DNA of 53,922 bases, from the IMG/VR virus record IMGVR_UViG_3300027754_000008, positions 1 through 53,922 of that record; one strand, given 5' to 3'. The stretch is from a virus (lineage: Duplodnaviria > Caudoviricetes). The notes below the pieces were generated by a model, which searched no databases, was not told the DNA's origin, and saw nothing but the letters and a program-made list of their open reading frames with translations. The stretch's first letter is position 1. Every line of letters begins with the position of its first letter. The translations under genes were made by a program, and so were the position numbers. Positions 29,249-44,503 of the stretch are shown piece by piece.

Positions 29249-29544
29249 CCACCCTCAAAGAAAAAAAACATATGAATGCGGTGGCTGAACTAGGTTGTGC
29301 CGTTTGTCGTCGCATGGGGTATGCAGGCACCCCAGCAGAACTACACCACCCAAGGCGTCTTGCAGGCGGCTGGGGACGTTCTAGCCACATGAGTGTCATA
29401 CCACTATGCCCAGAGCACCACAGAGGCTCTACGGGCTTGCATGGGCTTGGCACAAAGGGTTTCCCTAAGCACTGGGGCTACACAGAGGAAGACTTGCTCA
29501 AAGATACCCTTGAACTACTGGGTGTTGCAGAAGAACAACATTAG
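29245..29544 (+). CDS. Ref-like (recombination enhancement) HNH/Zn nuclease
   Basis: CAVC...ELHH...IPLCPEHHR...HG. Confidence 0.75.
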   Translation: MTTLKEKKHMNAVAELGCAVCRRMGYAGTPAELHHPRRLAGGWGRSSHMSVIPLCPEHHRGSTGLHGLGTKGFPKHWGYTEEDLLKDTLELLGVAEEQH

Positions 29545-29651
29545 GGTATGTCCTAATAAAATAATTGTTGACCATGTTTAATTTGGAGTTACACTTCATC
29601 CATCGACACAGCAATAACGCACAGTCGATACAGCGAATAGGAAACAGCGAA
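29541..29651 (+). promoter_or_regulatory. Early promoter-leader module 1
   Basis: TTAGGGTATGTCCTAA, AT tract, TTGACC-N16-TACACT, hairpin, ACAGCGAA x2, ATG. Confidence 0.7.
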
Positions 29652-30872: not shown

Positions 30873-31026
30873 AACAGTAATGAGCGAATACATCAAAGGT
30901 TTTGACCACGGGTGCGACTACATTGTTGCGGAGATTGAGAAATACATTAAGACCGTCAACAGCCATGACGCATTGGTGTTAGTTGACTTGGTCAAGCGAC
31001 TTAAGATGGAAGACAAACCAAAATGA
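30865..31026 (+). CDS. Small hypothetical protein (not in the ORF track)
   Basis: 53-aa ORF whose stop overlaps the MTase start (ATGA). Confidence 0.5.
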   Translation: MSETVMSEYIKGFDHGCDYIVAEIEKYIKTVNSHDALVLVDLVKRLKMEDKPK

Positions 31027-32063
31027 AATTCATTGAACTGTTTGCAGGCATAGGTGGGTTTCGCCTCGGGTTAGAGAAGGCGGGTCACGAGTGTGTGTGG
31101 GCTAATGAATTTACACCAAGGGCGGCAAGCATTTATGAACACAACTTTAAACACAAACCAGACGGACGAGACATCAGAAGAATTCATGTTGATGATGTCC
31201 CCAGCGCAGATTTACTCGTTGGAGGATTTCCATGCGCAACTTTCAGCGTTGCTGGTAGAAGAACAGGGTTTGGGACAGAAGATACACGAGGTACTCTCTT
31301 TTTTGAAATCTGCCGAATCCTATCTGGTAAGCGAATCCCATATCTATTCCTTGAGAATGTTAAGGGACTCCTCAATCACGACGGAGGAAGAACCTTTGGA
31401 GTTATCGTCGCAAGTCTGGATGAACTGGGGTATGACGTGCAATGGGAGTGTCTTAACAGCAAGAATTTCGGAGTCCCACAGAATCGGGAACGAGTCTTTA
31501 TTGTCGGAAATCTTAGAGGACACCCCAGACCAAAAGTATTTCCTGTCGGAAGAAGTTATGCAGAAGATAGCGTTCAACACCGAGGTGAACAAGATCAAGA
31601 ACCGAGGGTTCGGAGCGAAGGTGGTCTCACTATCGGAACACTCTGTCACAGACTTTACAAGGGAGACACTAACAACTTCTACCTTGCTGGACAAATACGA
31701 GGACAAGCTGAACAACTTGAGAACACTACAGCAGGAGGAGGTAGTACCACCGAATCAGATGAGTCTGTTCGAGCAGTCCTAACACCAGCAAAAGAAAAGA
31801 AGCGCCAGCGTGGTCGACGCATGAAAGAACATAACGAACCAGCATTCACTCTCACTGCGCAGGACAGGCATGGGTTGATGGTGGGTTCTAGGTTGCGCAG
31901 ATTCACACCGTTGGAATGTGAGAGGCTCCAGTCGCTACCTGATAACTGGACGCGCTGGTATGCAGATGGTTCAGAGGTTCCAGACACGCAACGATATGAG
32001 CGGTGTGGTCGTGCTGTTACTGTCAACGTGATATACGAAATTGCAAAGAGGTTACCAGCATGA
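31023..32063 (+). CDS. C5 cytosine DNA methyltransferase-family enzyme, predicted carboxymethyltransferase
   Basis: ELFAGIGG (I), GGFPC (IV), ENV (VI), QNRERVF (VIII), TPLECERLQ (IX); motif X is GRAV instead of GNAV/GNSV. Confidence 0.92.
   Translation: MKFIELFAGIGGFRLGLEKAGHECVWANEFTPRAASIYEHNFKHKPDGRDIRRIHVDDVPSADLLVGGFPCATFSVAGRRTGFGTEDTRGTLFFEICRILSGKRIPYLFLENVKGLLNHDGGRTFGVIVASLDELGYDVQWECLNSKNFGVPQNRERVFIVGNLRGHPRPKVFPVGRSYAEDSVQHRGEQDQEPRVRSEGGLTIGTLCHRLYKGDTNNFYLAGQIRGQAEQLENTTAGGGSTTESDESVRAVLTPAKEKKRQRGRRMKEHNEPAFTLTAQDRHGLMVGSRLRRFTPLECERLQSLPDNWTRWYADGSEVPDTQRYERCGRAVTVNVIYEIAKRLPA
31093..31782 (+). CDS. Nested alternative-frame ORF, putative second (beta-like) subunit of the transferase; start uncertain
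   Basis: 229 open codons inside the MTase; WMNWGM..NG....ES and LSEILEDTPDQKYFLS. Confidence 0.55.
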   Translation: MCGLMNLHQGRQAFMNTTLNTNQTDETSEEFMLMMSPAQIYSLEDFHAQLSALLVEEQGLGQKIHEVLSFLKSAESYLVSESHIYSLRMLRDSSITTEEEPLELSSQVWMNWGMTCNGSVLTARISESHRIGNESLLSEILEDTPDQKYFLSEEVMQKIAFNTEVNKIKNRGFGAKVVSLSEHSVTDFTRETLTTSTLLDKYEDKLNNLRTLQQEEVVPPNQMSLFEQS

Positions 32064-32875
32064 TTGACATCAAAAAGGTTTTGCTTCAAAGCGCAGGTAC
32101 ATCAAAGAATGACGCCGCTGTTTTGCTCAGTGCAGGGGTAGACTCATCCAGCGTTCTATTCGCGTTGCTAGAGGCTGGTAAGCGCGTTACAGCGTATTCG
32201 TTTTGCTTGGACGACAGAACGTCAACCGACGTGAAGTATGCGCAGATCACAGCAAAAGAATTTGGTGTACCGTTTGTGCAGATACCGTTACCGACAAGCA
32301 TTGATGTGCTCAGAGAAGACCTAGTTGACTTGGTGCGGTTCGGTGCAAAGAAGAAGACAGACTTTGAGTGTGGTTGGCCAATGCTCTACGCATACAAAGC
32401 AATCACTGAACGCGAGATATTTTCTGGCATGGGTGCAGACGGTCACTTCTGCATCAGCAAAAAAGGAATGATGCACTACAAAAACAGAATCGATGAATTT
32501 AGAAGCACGCTGTTTTTAAATCCATCATACGGTCAAGAGCACATTCATAGAAACCTTAGCAGGGTTTACAAAAAGTGCTGGGTGGCACCGTACATGACGC
32601 AAGAGATGATCGACGAGTTAAAAGGTACAACATGGGATGAGGTCAATCGTCCGCATCAGAAGCAACCAATACTTGATGCGTTCCCTGAGCAGTTCAAACG
32701 CATAAAAATTTTTAAGCACACCAACTTTCAAAAGGGTGACTCAGGTATCTCTGAGCATTTTGAAAAACTACTACATACTGACTTGAATGTTGGGAAGCAT
32801 AAGTCGGTCGTTGGAATCTACAACTACTTAGTCAAAAACTTATCGAAAGAAAATGATGAACTCTTGGACATTTGA
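32060..32875 (+). CDS. Asparagine-synthetase-like ATP-dependent amide ligase with no glutaminase domain
   Basis: PP-loop LLSAGVDSS, SGMGADGHF, K..FQ.G; ATGA-coupled to the MTase. Confidence 0.82.
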   Translation: MIDIKKVLLQSAGTSKNDAAVLLSAGVDSSSVLFALLEAGKRVTAYSFCLDDRTSTDVKYAQITAKEFGVPFVQIPLPTSIDVLREDLVDLVRFGAKKKTDFECGWPMLYAYKAITEREIFSGMGADGHFCISKKGMMHYKNRIDEFRSTLFLNPSYGQEHIHRNLSRVYKKCWVAPYMTQEMIDELKGTTWDEVNRPHQKQPILDAFPEQFKRIKIFKHTNFQKGDSGISEHFEKLLHTDLNVGKHKSVVGIYNYLVKNLSKENDELLDI

Positions 32876-33515
32876 TACACCAGAAATTGCAAACACATTC
32901 GACGCTCATGTGCGCGAACAACTACCGTGGTACGACATGGTCACCGATGCGGTGGTGTACATCGCTCGAAATTATTTGCCAGAGTATGGGGTGGTAGTTG
33001 ACATTGGTGCGTCAACAGGCAACATGATTGACAAACTTATGCCTTTGGCAAATGAACGCATAGCAGATATTGTTGCCATTGAAAAAAGCATTCCCATGTG
33101 CGCAATTCTTAAAAAGAAATACAACAAAAAAAGCGATTGTGTTGTTGTGGAAAACTCAGACGTAACCAGAGGAGACTTACCTAAAGCTGATGTGTATATT
33201 TTGTTTTTGACAATGATGTTCATTCCAATAGAAAAACGCAAAGCCTTAATCGACTCTATGAGAGCGAATTGCAAGCAGGGTGGGGTGATAGTAGTGGTGG
33301 ACAAGGTTTGTGATCATGGCGGGTACTTTGCGACTGTCCTGAAGCGCCTTACCATGCACTTCAAACTACAGCAGGGTGCCAAGCCAGAAGATGTGCTGAC
33401 CAAAGAGATGAGTTTGGCAGGGGTGCAGATACCCATCGACCCAGCCATTCTGGGGACGGACGCCAAACAATTTTTCCGCATGGGTGAGTTTGCAGGCTGG
33501 GTTATTGAGTGTTAG
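32853..33515 (+). CDS. cmoA: CmoA-like carboxy-S-adenosylmethionine synthase
   Basis: WTFD...ANTFDAHVREQLPWY, VDIGASTG, FLTMMFI...R, GGVIVVVDK; these resemble CmoA WTFD..VA..F..M..RS.PGY / DLGCS.G / FTLQF / GG.LV..EK. Confidence 0.75.
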   Translation: MMNSWTFDTPEIANTFDAHVREQLPWYDMVTDAVVYIARNYLPEYGVVVDIGASTGNMIDKLMPLANERIADIVAIEKSIPMCAILKKKYNKKSDCVVVENSDVTRGDLPKADVYILFLTMMFIPIEKRKALIDSMRANCKQGGVIVVVDKVCDHGGYFATVLKRLTMHFKLQQGAKPEDVLTKEMSLAGVQIPIDPAILGTDAKQFFRMGEFAGWVIEC

Positions 33516-33629
33516 GGAAAGTACCTAGAAAATAATTTAAAAAGTTATTGCACTCGTTTAATTTGGTGTTATACTAACTTCACTGACACAGCAAATCCGC
33601 ATAGTCAGCAAACAGTGAAGGAAAGCGAA
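33512..33629 (+). promoter_or_regulatory. Early promoter-leader module 2
   Basis: TTAGGGAAAGTACCTAG, TTGCAC-N16-TATACT with TGn, hairpin CTGAC/GTCAG, ACAGTGAA..AGCGAA-ATG. Confidence 0.75.
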
Positions 33630-34026: not shown

Positions 34027-34809
34027 ATGGAAAAAGCAAACTTCTCCCAACTCTTAAACGATGCCATCAACCAGCCGGGCATCCTGAGCAAGTGCTACAG
34101 CACCTTTCACGGCTACAGCCTTGGTAACCAACTCTTGGCATACAGCCAGTGCGTCGCACGCGACATTCCGCTTGGCCCTATCGCCACATTCAAAAAGTGG
34201 AAAGACCTTGGTCGCTCTGTGAGCAAAGGTCAAAAGGCTATTGCCTTGGTAATGCCCGTCACTGTCAGCAAAAAAGATGCGGCTGGCGAAAAGACTGGCG
34301 AGGTGTTCTCACTGTTCACCCTGAAAAACAATTGGTTTGTGCTCGGTCAGACTGAGGGCGACGATTACGCCGCTGAGGTGGTGATCCCAACATGGGACAA
34401 GGTCAAGGCTTTGGAAACCCTCAGCATCACAGAGGTGCCATTTAGCCACACTGATGGCAACTGCCAAGGCTACGCTTACGCGACCAGCATTGCCGTTAAC
34501 CCAGTGGCTGTATTGCCCCACAAAACCCGCTTCCATGAGATCGCTCACGTCGTGCTCGGTCACACAAAGGAAGGTCAACTGTCAGACAGCGAAGCAACGC
34601 CCCGTGACGTGCGCGAAGTCGAGGCTGAGGGTGTTGCCTACATCCTGTGCTCTTTGCTCGGTTTAGAGGGCTTACATGAGTCTCGTGGCTATATCCAGAA
34701 CTGGTTGAAGGGTGCAGAGGTTACTGATAAGACAGCCCAGCGCATTTTCAGCGCCGCCAACAAGATTTTGGAGGCTGGACAGGATAAGGGTAAGTCCTTA
34801 GAAAAATAA
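34027..34809 (+). CDS. ardC: ArdC-like antirestriction protein (ssDNA-binding domain plus zincin metallopeptidase)
   Basis: YSLGNQLL, ATFKKWKDLGRSVSKGQKA, HEIAH, EVEAE, GYIQNW. Confidence 0.85.
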   Translation: MEKANFSQLLNDAINQPGILSKCYSTFHGYSLGNQLLAYSQCVARDIPLGPIATFKKWKDLGRSVSKGQKAIALVMPVTVSKKDAAGEKTGEVFSLFTLKNNWFVLGQTEGDDYAAEVVIPTWDKVKALETLSITEVPFSHTDGNCQGYAYATSIAVNPVAVLPHKTRFHEIAHVVLGHTKEGQLSDSEATPRDVREVEAEGVAYILCSLLGLEGLHESRGYIQNWLKGAEVTDKTAQRIFSAANKILEAGQDKGKSLEK

Positions 34810-39880: not shown

Positions 39881-42800
39881 ATGCCTGACATTTCTAAACT
39901 TGCTAAAGGTCTGACTGCCATCGCAAAAGGCGCGAAGGAGGAAATCCCATTTTCTCGTGGTGTAAAGACGCTATCAAGGGCTGAGAGCGACGAGAACCTT
40001 CGCAAGATGCTGGAGTCAAGCAAGATCAAGGAAAGACTGTTTCACGCAACGCCAGAGGACATCAAGTTCTTTAAGCCCGGCGGACTTAATCCCAAAATGA
40101 GTGGTGAAGCAATTTGGTTATCACCTGATCCAGCCAAAACACCAGCCGCACATAACATCGGTTACTACGACAATCCTCGGCAAGGTGTGAACATCATGCC
40201 TGTTCATGTGCAAGCAAAGAATCCCATGATTTTGGATGACGTGGATATGCTCAAGTGGGCGCAACAGGTATATGGCGAAGGTAGCAGAGAGTTTCCACAG
40301 TTAATGCCAAAGAAATGGCGTGAAGAAGTTATGAAAGATTACGACAGCATTGTGTTGGCTGATCCGTATAAACGCGGTGATCCGCACGAGGTCATCATGT
40401 TTGAACCTGAAAAGATTAAGTCAGCCACTGGCAACCGTGGAACGTACAACACCGACACGGCAGACATTACAAAGCGCAAAGGCGGTGCTATCCGTAAGGC
40501 TCGTGGCGGTCTTGCTCGAATGGCTGGCGGTGGTCAACCATCCAAAGTATTGAGTGGCAACATCATGGCTGGTGCTAGTTGGAACAGTATCAATCCAACA
40601 CTGGCGGACAGGCTAACTGAAGCTACTGGGATGCCAACGTATAACGCCGCTGTTGGCGCTACGACAAGCGCAGATACCTACAAGCAGTTGATAGATTTCA
40701 TTGAGGCTGGTGGTTCATTTGAAGAGGGCGCTAACGTATTTTTGCAGGCAGGTGGCGCTGACTTTTTAAAAGGTGTGTCGAGAAAAGATACTGAAGAAAA
40801 CCTAGACAAAATTCTTACTGAACTTGAAAAGAGAGGCGTCAATGTTGTCTTGACTGGATCACCAGATGCGTCGTCTTACGAACAGGTTATCTCAAACAAC
40901 TTTAATCCTGCATCAGACCAAATTTATAACAATGTTGTTGCCAAGCATTCCAATGTGGTGTTGGTTGATTCAATGGGTGAAATACTGCAAGACAAATCGT
41001 TATTGTCAGATTCAATACACCCCAACGAGCAGGGCTGGGAGGTCTATAACGACTCTGTGCTTGGTGCTCTCAGTCAGCTAAAAAAGCGTGAAGAGCAAGA
41101 AGTCCAAAAAGAAGAGCCTGTAGACATTCCTCAAGAGATTGAGAAGATTACGCAGACAAGCACCCCAGAAGAGCGTTACACAAAAAACACTGAGGCTGAG
41201 CAACCTGTAGACATCCCTGAAGAGATTGAGCGCATCACCAACAATTCTCAAGAGCAGTACACACCAGATTTTCAGTCTGAATACGCATTAGAAAATATTC
41301 CTCAGATCAATACAGAGATGCCTGTGCAAACGCCCCAGACAGGCTACCAAGCGCCGCAAACCTATATGCCTATACAAGAGGTGCAGGAAGCCGAATCAGT
41401 GCCGTATGAGCCTCAAGAGATTGCGTCAAATCCAGAGCAACAGCCAAGAGCCGTTGAAACAAGGAGCGGCCCAGACTACAGCCGCGCATATGGTGCGTTA
41501 GGTGGTGAAGAAGTTGTAAACAACCTGTACAAACAATTCTTAGGGATGGGGTTGGATGAAGACACCATTGGCTCAGTCTTTTCCAAATACTATTCACCCG
41601 ATGCACAAGAGGCTAAGAAGGGTGGCGCTATCCGTATGCAAGTCGGTGGTCTGGGTACCGTTGCCAAACTTGCCGCCGCTGAAAAGGTAGCCCCAGCCGC
41701 TAAGGTTGCTAGAGGGTTCACCCCAAGGTTGCTTGAGTCGACTACCAGCAAGATGTTAGATGACATTTTGGCAAACAATCCTAAGTTGACACCAGAGGCG
41801 GCATTTAAAAAAGCAAAGGAACAAGCGGAGCGTAAGTTGACGTGGGAGAGGGAAACAAAGCCCGATCTAGTTAAGCAGTACGGCCCGTTAGCCCGAGCCT
41901 CTTACGAAAAGACAAAAGTCAACAAGATGCAGAACACCGACGAGGCTGTTCAAAAACGTATCCAAAAAGCTAACGAGTTCCTTGATCAACCAACCGAACC
42001 GTGGACACCACCTAAGCCAGAGTTGCAGGCATTTGATCGTTCATCGATCAAAGACGCAATCGAGGGGTTTCCAAGCATAGAGCAGACGGCATTTCCCCGT
42101 GACATCCCAACCCGCGCCAGCACTTCTCATGTTGAGGGTTTGTACACCGATCCAGTCAATCGTGAGTTAATTAAGAAACAAATTACTCGTGGTTTACCGT
42201 TGGGTGGTGAGACCTTTTACGGTTCGCTGTACCCCATTAAACAGGCGGTGCTTGAAGCTGGTATGCCAGCAGAGAAGTTTGACAAGTGGGTTCATTCATT
42301 AGCGCCAGCATCCGCAAGAAACTCTATCATCAACGAAACCGCTGTTGGTCAGTTTTTGCGAGACATGAACGCTCGTGGTATTCCATTGACTGAGGAAAAT
42401 GTTGCCATTGAAATGGCTAAGTACAAGCAGAAGTTTGGCGTAGCGCTACCCCTTATGCCTGTGCATCGTGAAGGCGTGGCTAGTGTTTTAGAGGGCGGAC
42501 AAGACTTGCGTGAGATGAGCAAAGCAAACATTCCGACTAACTACAAGATTCCTACCTACGGCGCTCAAAAAACAGGCGACTTTGGCAAGTCCGTAGTGCT
42601 TGACGTGCATGAGGCGGCGGGGCAAACACAGGGTAGTCGCTACCATCCTTACTTCAAAGAGCAAGGTGGGTTTGGTAACACTGAGTACAACGCTGGTGAG
42701 CAGGGAATGATGGGGATTGCTGAGGAGTTGGGGATACCCGGCGGCATGGCGCAGGCTGGTCGTTGGTTTGGTGGTGGCGAGTTGACTGGTCTCAAGTCAC

Positions 42801-44503
42801 CGCGAGGCGACGCGCTTGACATCCTTGAGCGTCAGGTAGCTTACACCCTCAAGCAACAAGGCAAACAACCTAACCCTACAATGATTCGCAATGAGATTCT
42901 CAACCAGATTAAAACAGGAGAAGGTCAACTTTTACCTTGGTACAAGAGTGAAGGTATTCCAGATGTGCGTCAAACTGGATTACAACGCAAAGACGGTGGA
43001 TCGGTTGAGGCTCCTCCTTTTCACGACTTCGACCAGATTATGAAACGCAAAGACGGAGGCACCGTGAACACAACATTTGAGCAACGCCTGAAGAGCGCAA
43101 TAGAGAAACACATGGCTGGTGGCGGTGAGGTGCATATGGAAGAGGGCGGATCATACCCACCCAAAAAAGATGTACCTGAGATGAGTCCTCAAAAGTATTT
43201 AGAACTGCTTGCACTGCAACCTAAGTTAGGTTTGCAATCAGAAAAACAAATCAAAGCATTTTTAGAAGAGCAGTACAAAAAAGAAAAAGAAGAAGGCTTT
43301 GGAACCCCTCAAGCACGCATGGATAGGGCTATCAAAACAGTAACACCGTTTATTGGTGCTGGCGCTGACATCGGAAATTTTGCGGCTAACATTCCCCACT
43401 ACTTGACTGAGGGTGTTTCCGCCGTTGGTAACTACGCCATGAGCAAAGTCCCATCAATGAGCAAGCCAGCATCAGTGCTTGACACCGAAGGTAAGGGTGA
43501 TCGAGTGGCTAAGTACCCACTTGAATCACTCCCAGAAGTTGAACCGTTCTATGGCAGTGCGGCAATGCAACGTGATGCAAAAAACGCTGGGTTAATGGGT
43601 GACTCTGAATCGCCAGTGTATGACACTGCTATGGCGTTTCTAGCCCCCTATGGTGCGGCTAAGGCACCCAAGGCAATTAAAGGCGGTTTAAATGCAACAA
43701 GAAGTGGTTTAGAAAATACAGCCGCCGCAGTGCGCAATCCATTTCAATCAGCCACGCTTACGATGGAGCAAGTAGCCCCAGACTTAGGTCAATTAGGCGG
43801 TGATAAATTTAAAGAATTGCTTACACGCAGATTAACTATGAACGAAGGTGCGCCTGTAAGCATGAGCATTATGGGTGGTCGCAAAACAGACAAGACACTT
43901 GGACAAGGTTTGTATGAAAACAAGGCTGGCGACTTTGAAACAAACCCTATGGTAGGTGTCAATATTCCACGCGCTGGTAACTTATCAACTAACAAAAAAT
44001 TGCTTGCAGACATTGGTACAGCGGGGCAAGAGTTAGGTCAGGAGATGGTTGCCGCGCATAAATTTACACCGTTGTTATTTGGCAACGCAAAAGATGCAAC
44101 CGCTATGATGGTTCGCGGTGCTGACGGTGCGCCTTTAACTCAAAAGCAAATCATAGAATTAGCGGGTGAGTTGCCCAATATGATTGCCTCGCACAGCCCT
44201 AAAGCTGGCGGTATGTTTGTAGCCCCATTTAAAGGTGATGCTTTAGATTATGCAAAGGTGCAAGAAGCGGCATCAAAAATACTTGGTAAAAACGCTCAAA
44301 TTAAATTTGGTAAAGCAGACCCCGATAAAGACATTATGTATCGTGGCGATTATAAAGATATGGGTGCAAGAGCGCCTTCAGCCGAGTCCATAGCAATGCG
44401 AGACCGCTTGAAGAAGGCGGAGGCGCGGATTGTTCGACCGCCTTCCAAATCACAGCCCGTGTCAAATACTCAGCCTCCTTCTCTAACCAGTACGCTTCGT
44501 TAA
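39881..44503 (+). CDS. Large polyvalent protein: ART-like domain, SGNH hydrolase, glycosylase-like DxH domain, unknown C-terminal region
   Basis: FHAT / WLSP / MPVHV..KNP / YDSI / EVIMF..EKIKS; GASW..NAAVG..DSIHP; VLDVH...AQAGRW. Confidence 0.75.
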   Translation: MPDISKLAKGLTAIAKGAKEEIPFSRGVKTLSRAESDENLRKMLESSKIKERLFHATPEDIKFFKPGGLNPKMSGEAIWLSPDPAKTPAAHNIGYYDNPRQGVNIMPVHVQAKNPMILDDVDMLKWAQQVYGEGSREFPQLMPKKWREEVMKDYDSIVLADPYKRGDPHEVIMFEPEKIKSATGNRGTYNTDTADITKRKGGAIRKARGGLARMAGGGQPSKVLSGNIMAGASWNSINPTLADRLTEATGMPTYNAAVGATTSADTYKQLIDFIEAGGSFEEGANVFLQAGGADFLKGVSRKDTEENLDKILTELEKRGVNVVLTGSPDASSYEQVISNNFNPASDQIYNNVVAKHSNVVLVDSMGEILQDKSLLSDSIHPNEQGWEVYNDSVLGALSQLKKREEQEVQKEEPVDIPQEIEKITQTSTPEERYTKNTEAEQPVDIPEEIERITNNSQEQYTPDFQSEYALENIPQINTEMPVQTPQTGYQAPQTYMPIQEVQEAESVPYEPQEIASNPEQQPRAVETRSGPDYSRAYGALGGEEVVNNLYKQFLGMGLDEDTIGSVFSKYYSPDAQEAKKGGAIRMQVGGLGTVAKLAAAEKVAPAAKVARGFTPRLLESTTSKMLDDILANNPKLTPEAAFKKAKEQAERKLTWERETKPDLVKQYGPLARASYEKTKVNKMQNTDEAVQKRIQKANEFLDQPTEPWTPPKPELQAFDRSSIKDAIEGFPSIEQTAFPRDIPTRASTSHVEGLYTDPVNRELIKKQITRGLPLGGETFYGSLYPIKQAVLEAGMPAEKFDKWVHSLAPASARNSIINETAVGQFLRDMNARGIPLTEENVAIEMAKYKQKFGVALPLMPVHREGVASVLEGGQDLREMSKANIPTNYKIPTYGAQKTGDFGKSVVLDVHEAAGQTQGSRYHPYFKEQGGFGNTEYNAGEQGMMGIAEELGIPGGMAQAGRWFGGGELTGLKSPRGDALDILERQVAYTLKQQGKQPNPTMIRNEILNQIKTGEGQLLPWYKSEGIPDVRQTGLQRKDGGSVEAPPFHDFDQIMKRKDGGTVNTTFEQRLKSAIEKHMAGGGEVHMEEGGSYPPKKDVPEMSPQKYLELLALQPKLGLQSEKQIKAFLEEQYKKEKEEGFGTPQARMDRAIKTVTPFIGAGADIGNFAANIPHYLTEGVSAVGNYAMSKVPSMSKPASVLDTEGKGDRVAKYPLESLPEVEPFYGSAAMQRDAKNAGLMGDSESPVYDTAMAFLAPYGAAKAPKAIKGGLNATRSGLENTAAAVRNPFQSATLTMEQVAPDLGQLGGDKFKELLTRRLTMNEGAPVSMSIMGGRKTDKTLGQGLYENKAGDFETNPMVGVNIPRAGNLSTNKKLLADIGTAGQELGQEMVAAHKFTPLLFGNAKDATAMMVRGADGAPLTQKQIIELAGELPNMIASHSPKAGGMFVAPFKGDALDYAKVQEAASKILGKNAQIKFGKADPDKDIMYRGDYKDMGARAPSAESIAMRDRLKKAEARIVRPPSKSQPVSNTQPPSLTSTLR

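Follow-up and report, generated by a model that had tools for sequence, protein, structure and literature searches.

A probable CmoA/CmoX/CmoY-type DNA hypermodification cassette, with a candidate overprinted transferase chain, in a Caudoviricetes genome

Organization of the cassette

IMG/VR record IMGVR_UViG_3300027754_000008 (Duplodnaviria; Caudoviricetes) is a complete virus genome of 53,922 bases with direct terminal repeats. The whole of this stretch was analysed and is referred to here as the window. At positions 31023–33515 it carries three translationally coupled open reading frames (ORFs) on the same strand, in the order X-Y-A, which most likely constitute a post-replicative DNA hypermodification system of the CmoA/CmoX/CmoY type. 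Carboxy-S-adenosyl-L-methionine (Cx-SAM) would be the cofactor of such a system. The features of the locus are as follows.

31023–32063, + strand: gene X, putative CmoX-like DNA cytosine-C5 carboxymethyltransferase, alpha chain, 346 amino acids (aa)
31135–31782, + strand: nested gene in the +1 frame inside X, candidate beta chain, 215 aa from a conserved ATG
31233–31238, + strand: codons of Cys71 (catalytic) and Ala72 of X, the latter aligned with the Gln82 position of M.HhaI
31756–31770, + strand: QMSLF, a QxxLF motif near the C-terminus of the nested protein
32010–32012, + strand: codon of Arg330 of X, aligned with Asn304 of M.HhaI and with Arg350 of CmoX from Synechococcus phage S-B43 (SpCmoX)
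32060–32875, + strand: gene Y, putative CmoY-like ATP-dependent PP-loop amide ligase, 271 aa from its ATG; the listed ORF opens at a GTG at 32003
32129–32146, + strand: PP-loop SAGVDS, residues 24–29 of Y
32853–33515, + strand: gene A, putative CmoA-like Cx-SAM synthase, 220 aa

Reading of the junctions reveals that the start codon of X shares an ATGA with the TGA of an upstream 53-aa ORF. X and Y also overlap by four bases (ATGA), Y and A overlap by 23 bases, and an AT-rich spacer of about 100 bases lies 3' of A. A preliminary description, made from the sequence alone, had named three overlapping, coupled genes for a protein with the fold of a cytosine-C5 methyltransferase (C5-MTase), a PP-loop protein and a CmoA-like protein, and had remarked on the lack of cmoB and tRNA genes. 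The ORFs, junctions and family matches confirm the first of these statements. The second holds across the complete genome, in which searches with the CmoB family PF08003 and for tRNA genes found neither.

The transferase X and its cofactor pocket

A literature search for 5-carboxymethylcytosine (5cxmC) or carboxymethyltransferase found natural phage systems only in the work on S-B43 (Yang et al., Nat Commun 2025, PMC12783734). According to that paper, the S-B43 CmoA (SpCmoA) makes Cx-SAM, the C5-MTase homologue SpCmoX (structure 8YF3), which is monomeric by size-exclusion chromatography (SEC), makes 5cxmC at GC sites, and CmoY (SpCmoY) ligates glycine to 5cxmC with ATP. In SpCmoX, Arg350 replaces the Asn304 of M.HhaI and contacts the carboxymethyl group of Cx-SAM, and the R350N variant is reported to accept neither cofactor. 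The same paper describes a survey in which 5,615 enzymes with both 'SPPC' and R350 were kept (PMC12783734).

The protein encoded by X covers 322 of the 324 profile positions of PF00145 (E 2.1e-81) and matches TIGR00675 at 3.3e-85. Its motifs are GFPC followed by Ala (motif IV), ENV within LENVKG (motif VI), QNRER (motif VIII) and CG-R-AV (motif X); GFPC, LENVKG and QNRER are also found in its relatives. Among solved structures, X matches M.HhaI at 1.1e-49 (172 bits), M.HaeIII at 7.4e-36 and CmoX 8YF3 at 2.7e-14 (56 bits).

Two residues of the cofactor pocket set X apart from M.HhaI. In M.HhaI, Gln82, Tyr254 and Asn304 are described as crowding the transferred group; the Q82A change lowers methyl transfer about 16-fold, and transfer of extended groups improves most with N304A (Lukinavicius et al., 2012, PMC3526304). 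By alignment, X has Ala72 and Arg330 at the motif IV Gln and motif X Asn positions, so that natural replacements occur at two of the sites altered in the engineered M.HhaI variant Q82A/Y254S/N304A. The motif X residue is Ala in engineered HhaI and Lys in engineered M.MpeI (N374K, as cited in PMC12783734), whereas it is a natural Arg in X. Moreover, in contrast to the engineered C5-MTase variants, X is paired with a dedicated, putative Cx-SAM synthase. The carboxylate of Cx-SAM is predicted to be bound by Arg330.

When IMG/VR was scanned with X, 120 relatives were returned, and the locus counts use the best 80. The sequence GFPCATFS is present in 79 of these 80, the remaining one being without its N-terminus; the CGR motif is likewise present in 79, the aligned piece of the remaining one ending before the motif. 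A wider survey of the pocket pair (motif IV/motif X) took the best 150 representatives, at 50% clustering, of 62,595 hits in all. Gln/Asn was found in 129 and Ala/Arg in seven, while Ala/Asn and Gln/Arg were each found in none. Two further representatives have Arg with the N-terminus missing, one has Ala with the C-terminus missing, and 11 are other or not aligned. There is no mixed pair among the 150 representatives, and the two residues co-vary without exception.

These alignments suggest that X is most likely a CmoX-like carboxymethyltransferase using Cx-SAM. The Gln-to-Ala and Asn-to-Arg pair falls naturally on two positions that engineers changed in order to transfer larger groups. It would provide a simple sequence rule for cofactor choice, and X a template near to M.HhaI for the building of tools.

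The carboxy-SAM synthase A

The best NCBIfam match of A is CmoA (TIGR00740, 3e-17), and A matches phrog_4752 at 9.9e-46. A profile of the A family (19 members) reaches the solved CmoA structures 4GEK, 1IM8 and 4IWN at 4.8e-31, 6.9e-31 and 6.9e-29, respectively, with the next family after CmoA at 1.4e-12. Alignment of the A family with 12 SpCmoA-family sequences by hhalign gives a probability of 99.5% and an E-value of 2.9e-23 over 206 columns. On these profile matches, A is most likely a CmoA-like Cx-SAM synthase.

In the bacterial pathway to uridine 5-oxyacetic acid (cmo5U) in tRNA, CmoA acts together with CmoB. A is a profile-level homologue of CmoA from this pathway (E. coli CmoA, 4GEK; Haemophilus influenzae YecO, 1IM8), whereas the cassette has neither a CmoB partner nor a tRNA, and its acceptor enzyme is a DNA C5-MTase. 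Arg199 of E. coli CmoA was considered as a test of catalytic residues, and no paper text naming it was found. The aligned position is Glu in A and also in the active SpCmoA, and the test was therefore dropped.

Conservation of the gene set

A CmoA-like gene lies downstream of X in 79 of the 80 IMG/VR relatives, and the contig of the 80th stops 32 bases after X. This frequency indicates that the arrangement is not due to chance. In the window A belongs to the cluster of X, with Y between the two. The same placement of Y, between X and A, is found in 12 of the 80 relatives; in the remaining 68 loci, queries with five further ligases gave no additional match in the available contig DNA. The ligase is thus an optional insert in the X lineage, which fits a role of 5cxmC as a handle that may be left bare or decorated.

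Cultured phages also carry these gene sets, in the order A-Y-X in S-B43 and in Staphylococcus phage vB-SscS-F1, X-A-?-Y in PaBG, and X, AsnB-like, A in TurkishDelight. The association of an HhaI-like GFPC-Ala/Arg lineage with CmoA suggests that natural carboxymethyltransferases are not confined to SPPC enzymes. As this association holds in 79 of the 80 relatives, counts made with the SPPC filter are probably too low.

The ligase Y and its product

Y matches PF00733 (Asn_synthase) at 2.9e-11, QueC at 4.9e-6 and phrog_26038 at 1.3e-57. It has 271 aa and no glutaminase domain. Comparison with SpCmoY, the assayed glycine ligase, reveals 37% identity over 250 of 271 residues (E 3e-44), both proteins being 271 aa in length. 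Among the 169 invariant columns of the SpCmoY family, 57 are also invariant and identical in the Y family. The solved relatives reached by a profile of Y, namely QueC, asparagine synthetase and beta-lactam synthetase (about 1e-6), are distant; a single-sequence search of the PDB with Y gave no match at E 0.01. Our best guess is that the amine used by Y is glycine or another small amino acid.

The end product may nevertheless differ from a glycine amide. Y could use ammonia, giving the primary amide, or another amine or amino acid, or its substrate might not be 5cxmC borne on DNA. This alternative has a real chance of being correct, although we put it below an even one. It would suit the lack of a glutaminase domain, and Y is no closer to SpCmoY (37%) than to the ligases of unknown substrate in PaBG and in Erwinia, Yersinia and Staphylococcus phages (34–40%). 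PMC12783734 also describes clusters of ligases that have 'distinct active site residues' and whose amines were not identified. In addition, the lack of a ligase in the available contig DNA of 68 of the 80 relatives implies that 5cxmC alone would be a viable end product in this clade. On the other hand, Y lies between X and A and overlaps both at its start and stop, and it is homologous over its full length to the only assayed member of its family, with a conserved catalytic core. Both observations favour ligation of glycine or another small amino acid to 5cxmC.

A nested +1 frame inside X

Within X, the +1 frame is open in the window for 235 codons, from a GTG at 31093 to 31782, with the conserved ATG at 31135. 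It is open for 174–251 codons, in the same place, in all 77 near-full-length relatives (down to 50% identity), whereas the +2 frame of these relatives is open for only 19–117 codons. When the X protein was held fixed and its codons were redrawn, a length of 235 was reached in 0 of 2000 trials with the codon usage of the genome and in 1 of 2000 with the gene's own usage. The nested frame is longer than in synonymous-codon permutations in each of 22 diverse relatives taken from the 77 (P at most 0.036). Among control C5-MTase genes of other lineages, only one of 13 exceeds its permutations (FpV9, P 0.012), and the S-B43 gene does not.

Relative synonymous codon entropy along X, calculated at conserved residues in 78 sequences, is as follows.

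X codons 1–30: 0.77
X codons 31–100: 0.58
X codons 101–165: 0.43
X codons 166–205: 0.29
X codons 206–346: 0.81–0.87

The nested protein matches phrog_16143 at 1.4e-35, has 128 gene-called homologues and has a conserved start. In 59 of 63 distinct nested translations, and in none of 62 X proteins, a sequence of the form Qxx[LMF]F occurs within the last 30 residues. This QxxLF tail resembles a sliding-clamp-binding motif.

A nested ORF is also present in the methyltransferase genes of Streptococcus phages MM1 and Javan83. The frames in the two Streptococcus phage genes, which encode Gln/Asn enzymes, exceed their permutations (161 codons; P 0.001 and 0 of 1000), and the MM1 counterpart is annotated 'C5 methyltransferase beta subunit'. 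A literature search for MM1 orf14 found no paper, and one for overlapping-frame methyltransferase beta subunits returned nothing relevant among the matches listed.

There is a proven precedent for a second chain encoded in this way. M.EcoHK31I is a natural alpha/beta C5-MTase; as described in PMC2836561, the coding sequence of its beta chain lies within the alpha gene in a different frame, and activity depends on both chains. Motif IX is reportedly missing from its alpha chain and contributed by beta. Compared by description only, X resembles M.EcoHK31I in that the second polypeptide lies wholly inside the methyltransferase gene, in another frame. The two differ in that X itself aligns with residues 263–316 of HhaI, i.e. 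through motifs IX–X. They differ also in that M.EcoHK31I is reported to methylate YGGCCR with S-adenosyl-L-methionine (SAM), whereas GGCC is avoided in the window genome. The nested protein contains an 'ILE..KYFLS' segment, which stands in frame after motif VIII in two of the 150 representatives.

A model of X in complex with the nested protein has a score of 0.64, against 0.00 for the best of three controls. Of 80 solved complexes 58 reach this mark, as do two of 110 mismatched pairs; these counts apply only roughly, since the model of X with the nested protein used alignments of our own. At least 34% of contacts agree between runs, and the pLDDT (predicted local distance difference test) of the partner is at least 43. 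The complex model supports binding of the nested protein to X and does not show it.

It could be argued that the nested frame is not translated, and that an RNA or DNA element or codon-pair effects account for its openness and synonymous constraint. The nested protein modelled alone by AlphaFold2 folds poorly (mean pLDDT 52.9; predicted template modelling score, pTM, 0.37), a Pfam search with it found no family and an Atlas search gave no hit above 0.78. The phrog_16143 match and the gene calls elsewhere could also represent mis-called frames. We consider this explanation unlikely, given the position and length of the frame in 77 of 77 relatives, the permutation excess in 22 of 22 relatives and both Streptococcus phage genes as against one of 13 controls, the low codon entropy over codons 31–205, the conserved ATG and terminal QxxLF motif, and the example of M.EcoHK31I. 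X probably works as two chains, the second being encoded in the +1 frame inside the gene.

A more speculative extension, which we regard as possible and rather doubtful, assigns functions to this second chain. The overprinted beta chain would complete the DNA-binding lobe and dock the host sliding clamp by means of its C-terminal QxxLF, and carboxymethylation and amidation would be coupled to the replication fork. The same beta chain would serve ordinary 5-methylcytosine (5mC) enzymes, for example those of Streptococcus phages, and the Gln-to-Ala and Asn-to-Arg changes would suffice for the switch to Cx-SAM. If this is true, fork-coupled modification would be a bacterial-virus counterpart of the maintenance methylation tethered by PCNA (proliferating cell nuclear antigen). 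An overprinted chain with a clamp-binding-like tail offers a testable idea of how phage modification may keep pace with replication.

Proposed pathway and comparison with phage S-B43

The gene identities, diagnostic residues, coupling and co-occurrence are observed here; the chemistry proposed for the cassette draws by inference on the S-B43 experiments and on methyltransferase engineering. A would convert SAM and prephenate to Cx-SAM. X would flip out the target cytosine, Cys71 would attack C6, and the carboxymethyl group would pass from Cx-SAM to C5, with Arg330 holding the cofactor carboxylate and Ala72 opening the pocket. Y would then use ATP to adenylate the new carboxylate and join it to an amine, most likely glycine or another small amino acid. 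The resulting amide-linked cytosine adduct would hide the DNA from host nucleases.

The preliminary description had put forward this route, from Cx-SAM through a C5-MTase-fold enzyme to 5cxmC and its amidation by the ligase. It receives support, as each step matches S-B43 and Arg330 is present. Co-occurrence of the genes in other genomes, chosen beforehand as one point on which that proposal could fail, is found for X with A (79 of 80) and for X, Y and A together (12 of 80, and the cultured phages). The same description had mentioned a cyanophage CmoA/CmoX/CmoY pathway and had warned that the logic might not be new, which is correct (PMC12783734). The pathway is already known, having been published in December 2025, and the cassette is not the discovery of a principle.

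The cassette and its S-B43 counterpart share the same three enzyme families in one overlapping cluster and the lack of cmoB. They also share an Arg at the carboxylate-binding motif X position, the lack of Gln after the catalytic Cys, and ligases of 271 aa that are 37% identical. They differ in several respects. The gene order is A-Y-X in S-B43 and X-Y-A in the window. SpCmoX has SPPC where X has GFPC, and X is far closer to M.HhaI than to SpCmoX. A nested +1 gene is present in X and not in the S-B43 gene, SpCmoX being a monomer by SEC. The window genome has no ParB-domain gene, a search for ParB_N across the complete genome having found none. The S-B43 target is GC, whereas the GC-containing GGCC and AGCT are strongly avoided in the window. 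As a variant of this known kind of system, the window copy has a transferase of different build, probably of two chains, and a ligase that its lineage can lack.

Several observations weigh against assigning the cassette to the CmoA/CmoX/CmoY type. The SPPC motif that served as the published filter for CmoX is not present, as X and 79 of the 80 relatives read GFPC, and X has a low identity of 26% to SpCmoX, Arg330 standing opposite Arg350. For an Asn-to-basic change in a non-SPPC enzyme, the experimental support is limited to the engineered Lys variant of M.MpeI, as cited in PMC12783734. A is only 21% identical to SpCmoA (E 2e-15), and its score of 63.1 bits against TIGR00740 is under the cut-off of 193.3. 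The assayed SpCmoA, at 115.6 bits, is under it as well, which indicates that the cut-off excludes true phage enzymes. Y is about equally far (32–40%) from ligases of unknown substrate. The genome also shows strong depletion of GGCC, CCGG and AGCT, as of most palindromic hexamers, and product, cofactor use and expression in this phage are predictions from its genes.

That X is instead an ordinary SAM-dependent 5mC methyltransferase, with the CmoA-like gene serving, for example, host tRNA cmo5U or SAM depletion, would agree with its full set of 5mC catalytic motifs, its better match to M.HhaI than to 8YF3 and the low score of A against the curated CmoA cut-off, and is nonetheless very improbable, since both pocket residues touching the transferred group are replaced and co-vary without exception, 79 of 80 relatives have a CmoA gene after X, the phage has no cmoB or tRNA, and Q82A alone cuts methyl transfer by HhaI about 16-fold (PMC3526304).

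Lineages of CmoA-linked transferases

Among the CmoA-linked enzymes of cultured phages, the combination of SPPC with Arg is found in S-B43, Mcat8 and TurkishDelight, and that of PPCK with Arg in PaBG. For SpCmoX the closer match is HaeIII (80 bits) rather than HhaI, and X is nearer to HhaI than to 8YF3. An independent origin of Arg in the GFPC-Ala/Arg and SPPC lineages, which such similarity scores suggested, was not borne out by trees. In a tree of 57 rows, with every second one of the eligible Gln/Asn representatives (42 of 83), all Gln/Asn rows are on one side of a branch with 100% support. In a tree of 44 rows, with 21 Gln/Asn rows and eight added phage enzymes, the lineages are split weakly (68). 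A single clade of all non-Asn enzymes was not rejected by the approximately unbiased (AU) test, the tree constrained to that clade being 6.4 log-likelihood units better (p-AU 0.58), and no convergence is therefore claimed. One representative, P0107, is an apparent chimera, its N-terminal half being like the X lineage and its C-terminal end like SpCmoX. This suggests that there has been exchange between the two Arg-type lineages.

CmoA-adjacent C5-MTases of two Staphylococcus phages, one SPbeta-like (locus L084, 4681–5679) and the other vB-SscS-F1 (locus L085, 5491–6498), have SPCQ with Gly-Gly. They keep the Gln after the catalytic Cys and have Gly-Gly near the C-terminus where Gly-Asn is expected. 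From their sequences, these Gln/Gly-Gly enzymes may represent a third solution for accepting Cx-SAM. Methyltransferases of Bacteroides, Bacillus, Cellulophaga and Flavobacterium phages (loci L171–L174) have SPPC-Ser, with Met at the motif X Asn position, and no CmoA gene within 2.5 kb.

Restriction-site avoidance and the target of X

Palindromic words are depleted in the window to very different extents, as the observed/expected ratios of the following 4-mers illustrate.

GGCC: 0.21
CCGG: 0.26
AGCT: 0.27
GCGC: 0.93
TCGA: 0.97

Forty of the 64 palindromic hexamers occur at most once, compared with 182 of 4032 (4.5%) non-palindromic hexamers. The hexamers TGCGCA and AGCGCT are spared from avoidance. 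Avoidance of this strength indicates that, even with the modification, restriction sites still matter to the phage. In this phage, site avoidance would thus go together with an ArdC-like gene and base modification.

On these counts, the avoidance of GGCC and AGCT makes a specificity for the GC dinucleotide, as in S-B43, seem unlikely. GCGC is a weak candidate for the target of X, the k-mer statistics giving only a hint. No match was found for a target-recognition domain in X, and phmmer aligns only residues 1–161 and 283–342 to HhaI.

Transcription unit and neighbouring genes

Two further features bracket the genes upstream of, and including, the cassette.

29568–29595, + strand: promoter-like site TTGACC-16-TACACT, with nine of 12 consensus matches, inside a repeated hairpin-plus-promoter element
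33510–33537, + strand: copy of the repeated hairpin element (family D2, four copies), which also precedes other promoter-like sites

Copies of repeat families D2–D4 lie at 29539, 33510, 34783 and 35711. The repeated element consists of a hairpin of the TTAGGG..CCTAA type, an AT-rich stretch and a TTGAC-16-TACA(A/C)T site, and is found also at 33556/33959. Such hairpin-promoter elements divide the region from 29.5 to 36 kb into short gene units. With the repeated elements at 29539 and 33510 and the promoter-like site, X, Y and A appear to close a gene unit of about 3.9 kb. The site at 29568–29595 is the probable start of this transcription unit, and the hairpin copy at 33510–33537 its probable end. 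Taken as a whole, the promoter scan showed no enrichment, with six sites found against 8.1 expected from shuffles.

Genes near the cassette encode a DUF1376 protein (family match), a PD-(D/E)XK nuclease (a weak match at E 2.8e-4, below the Pfam cut-off), a homologue of a RecA-dependent nuclease, the small and large terminase subunits and the portal protein. The ArdC-like anti-restriction gene (34027–34809) matches ArdcN at 6.9e-10 and has weak M78/zincin peptidase matches; it is situated 0.5 kb downstream of the cassette, within its own promoter-like unit. Between the terminase and portal genes, positions 39881–44503 encode a protein of 1540 aa, the sole family match of which is phrog_21376 at 4.3e-7.

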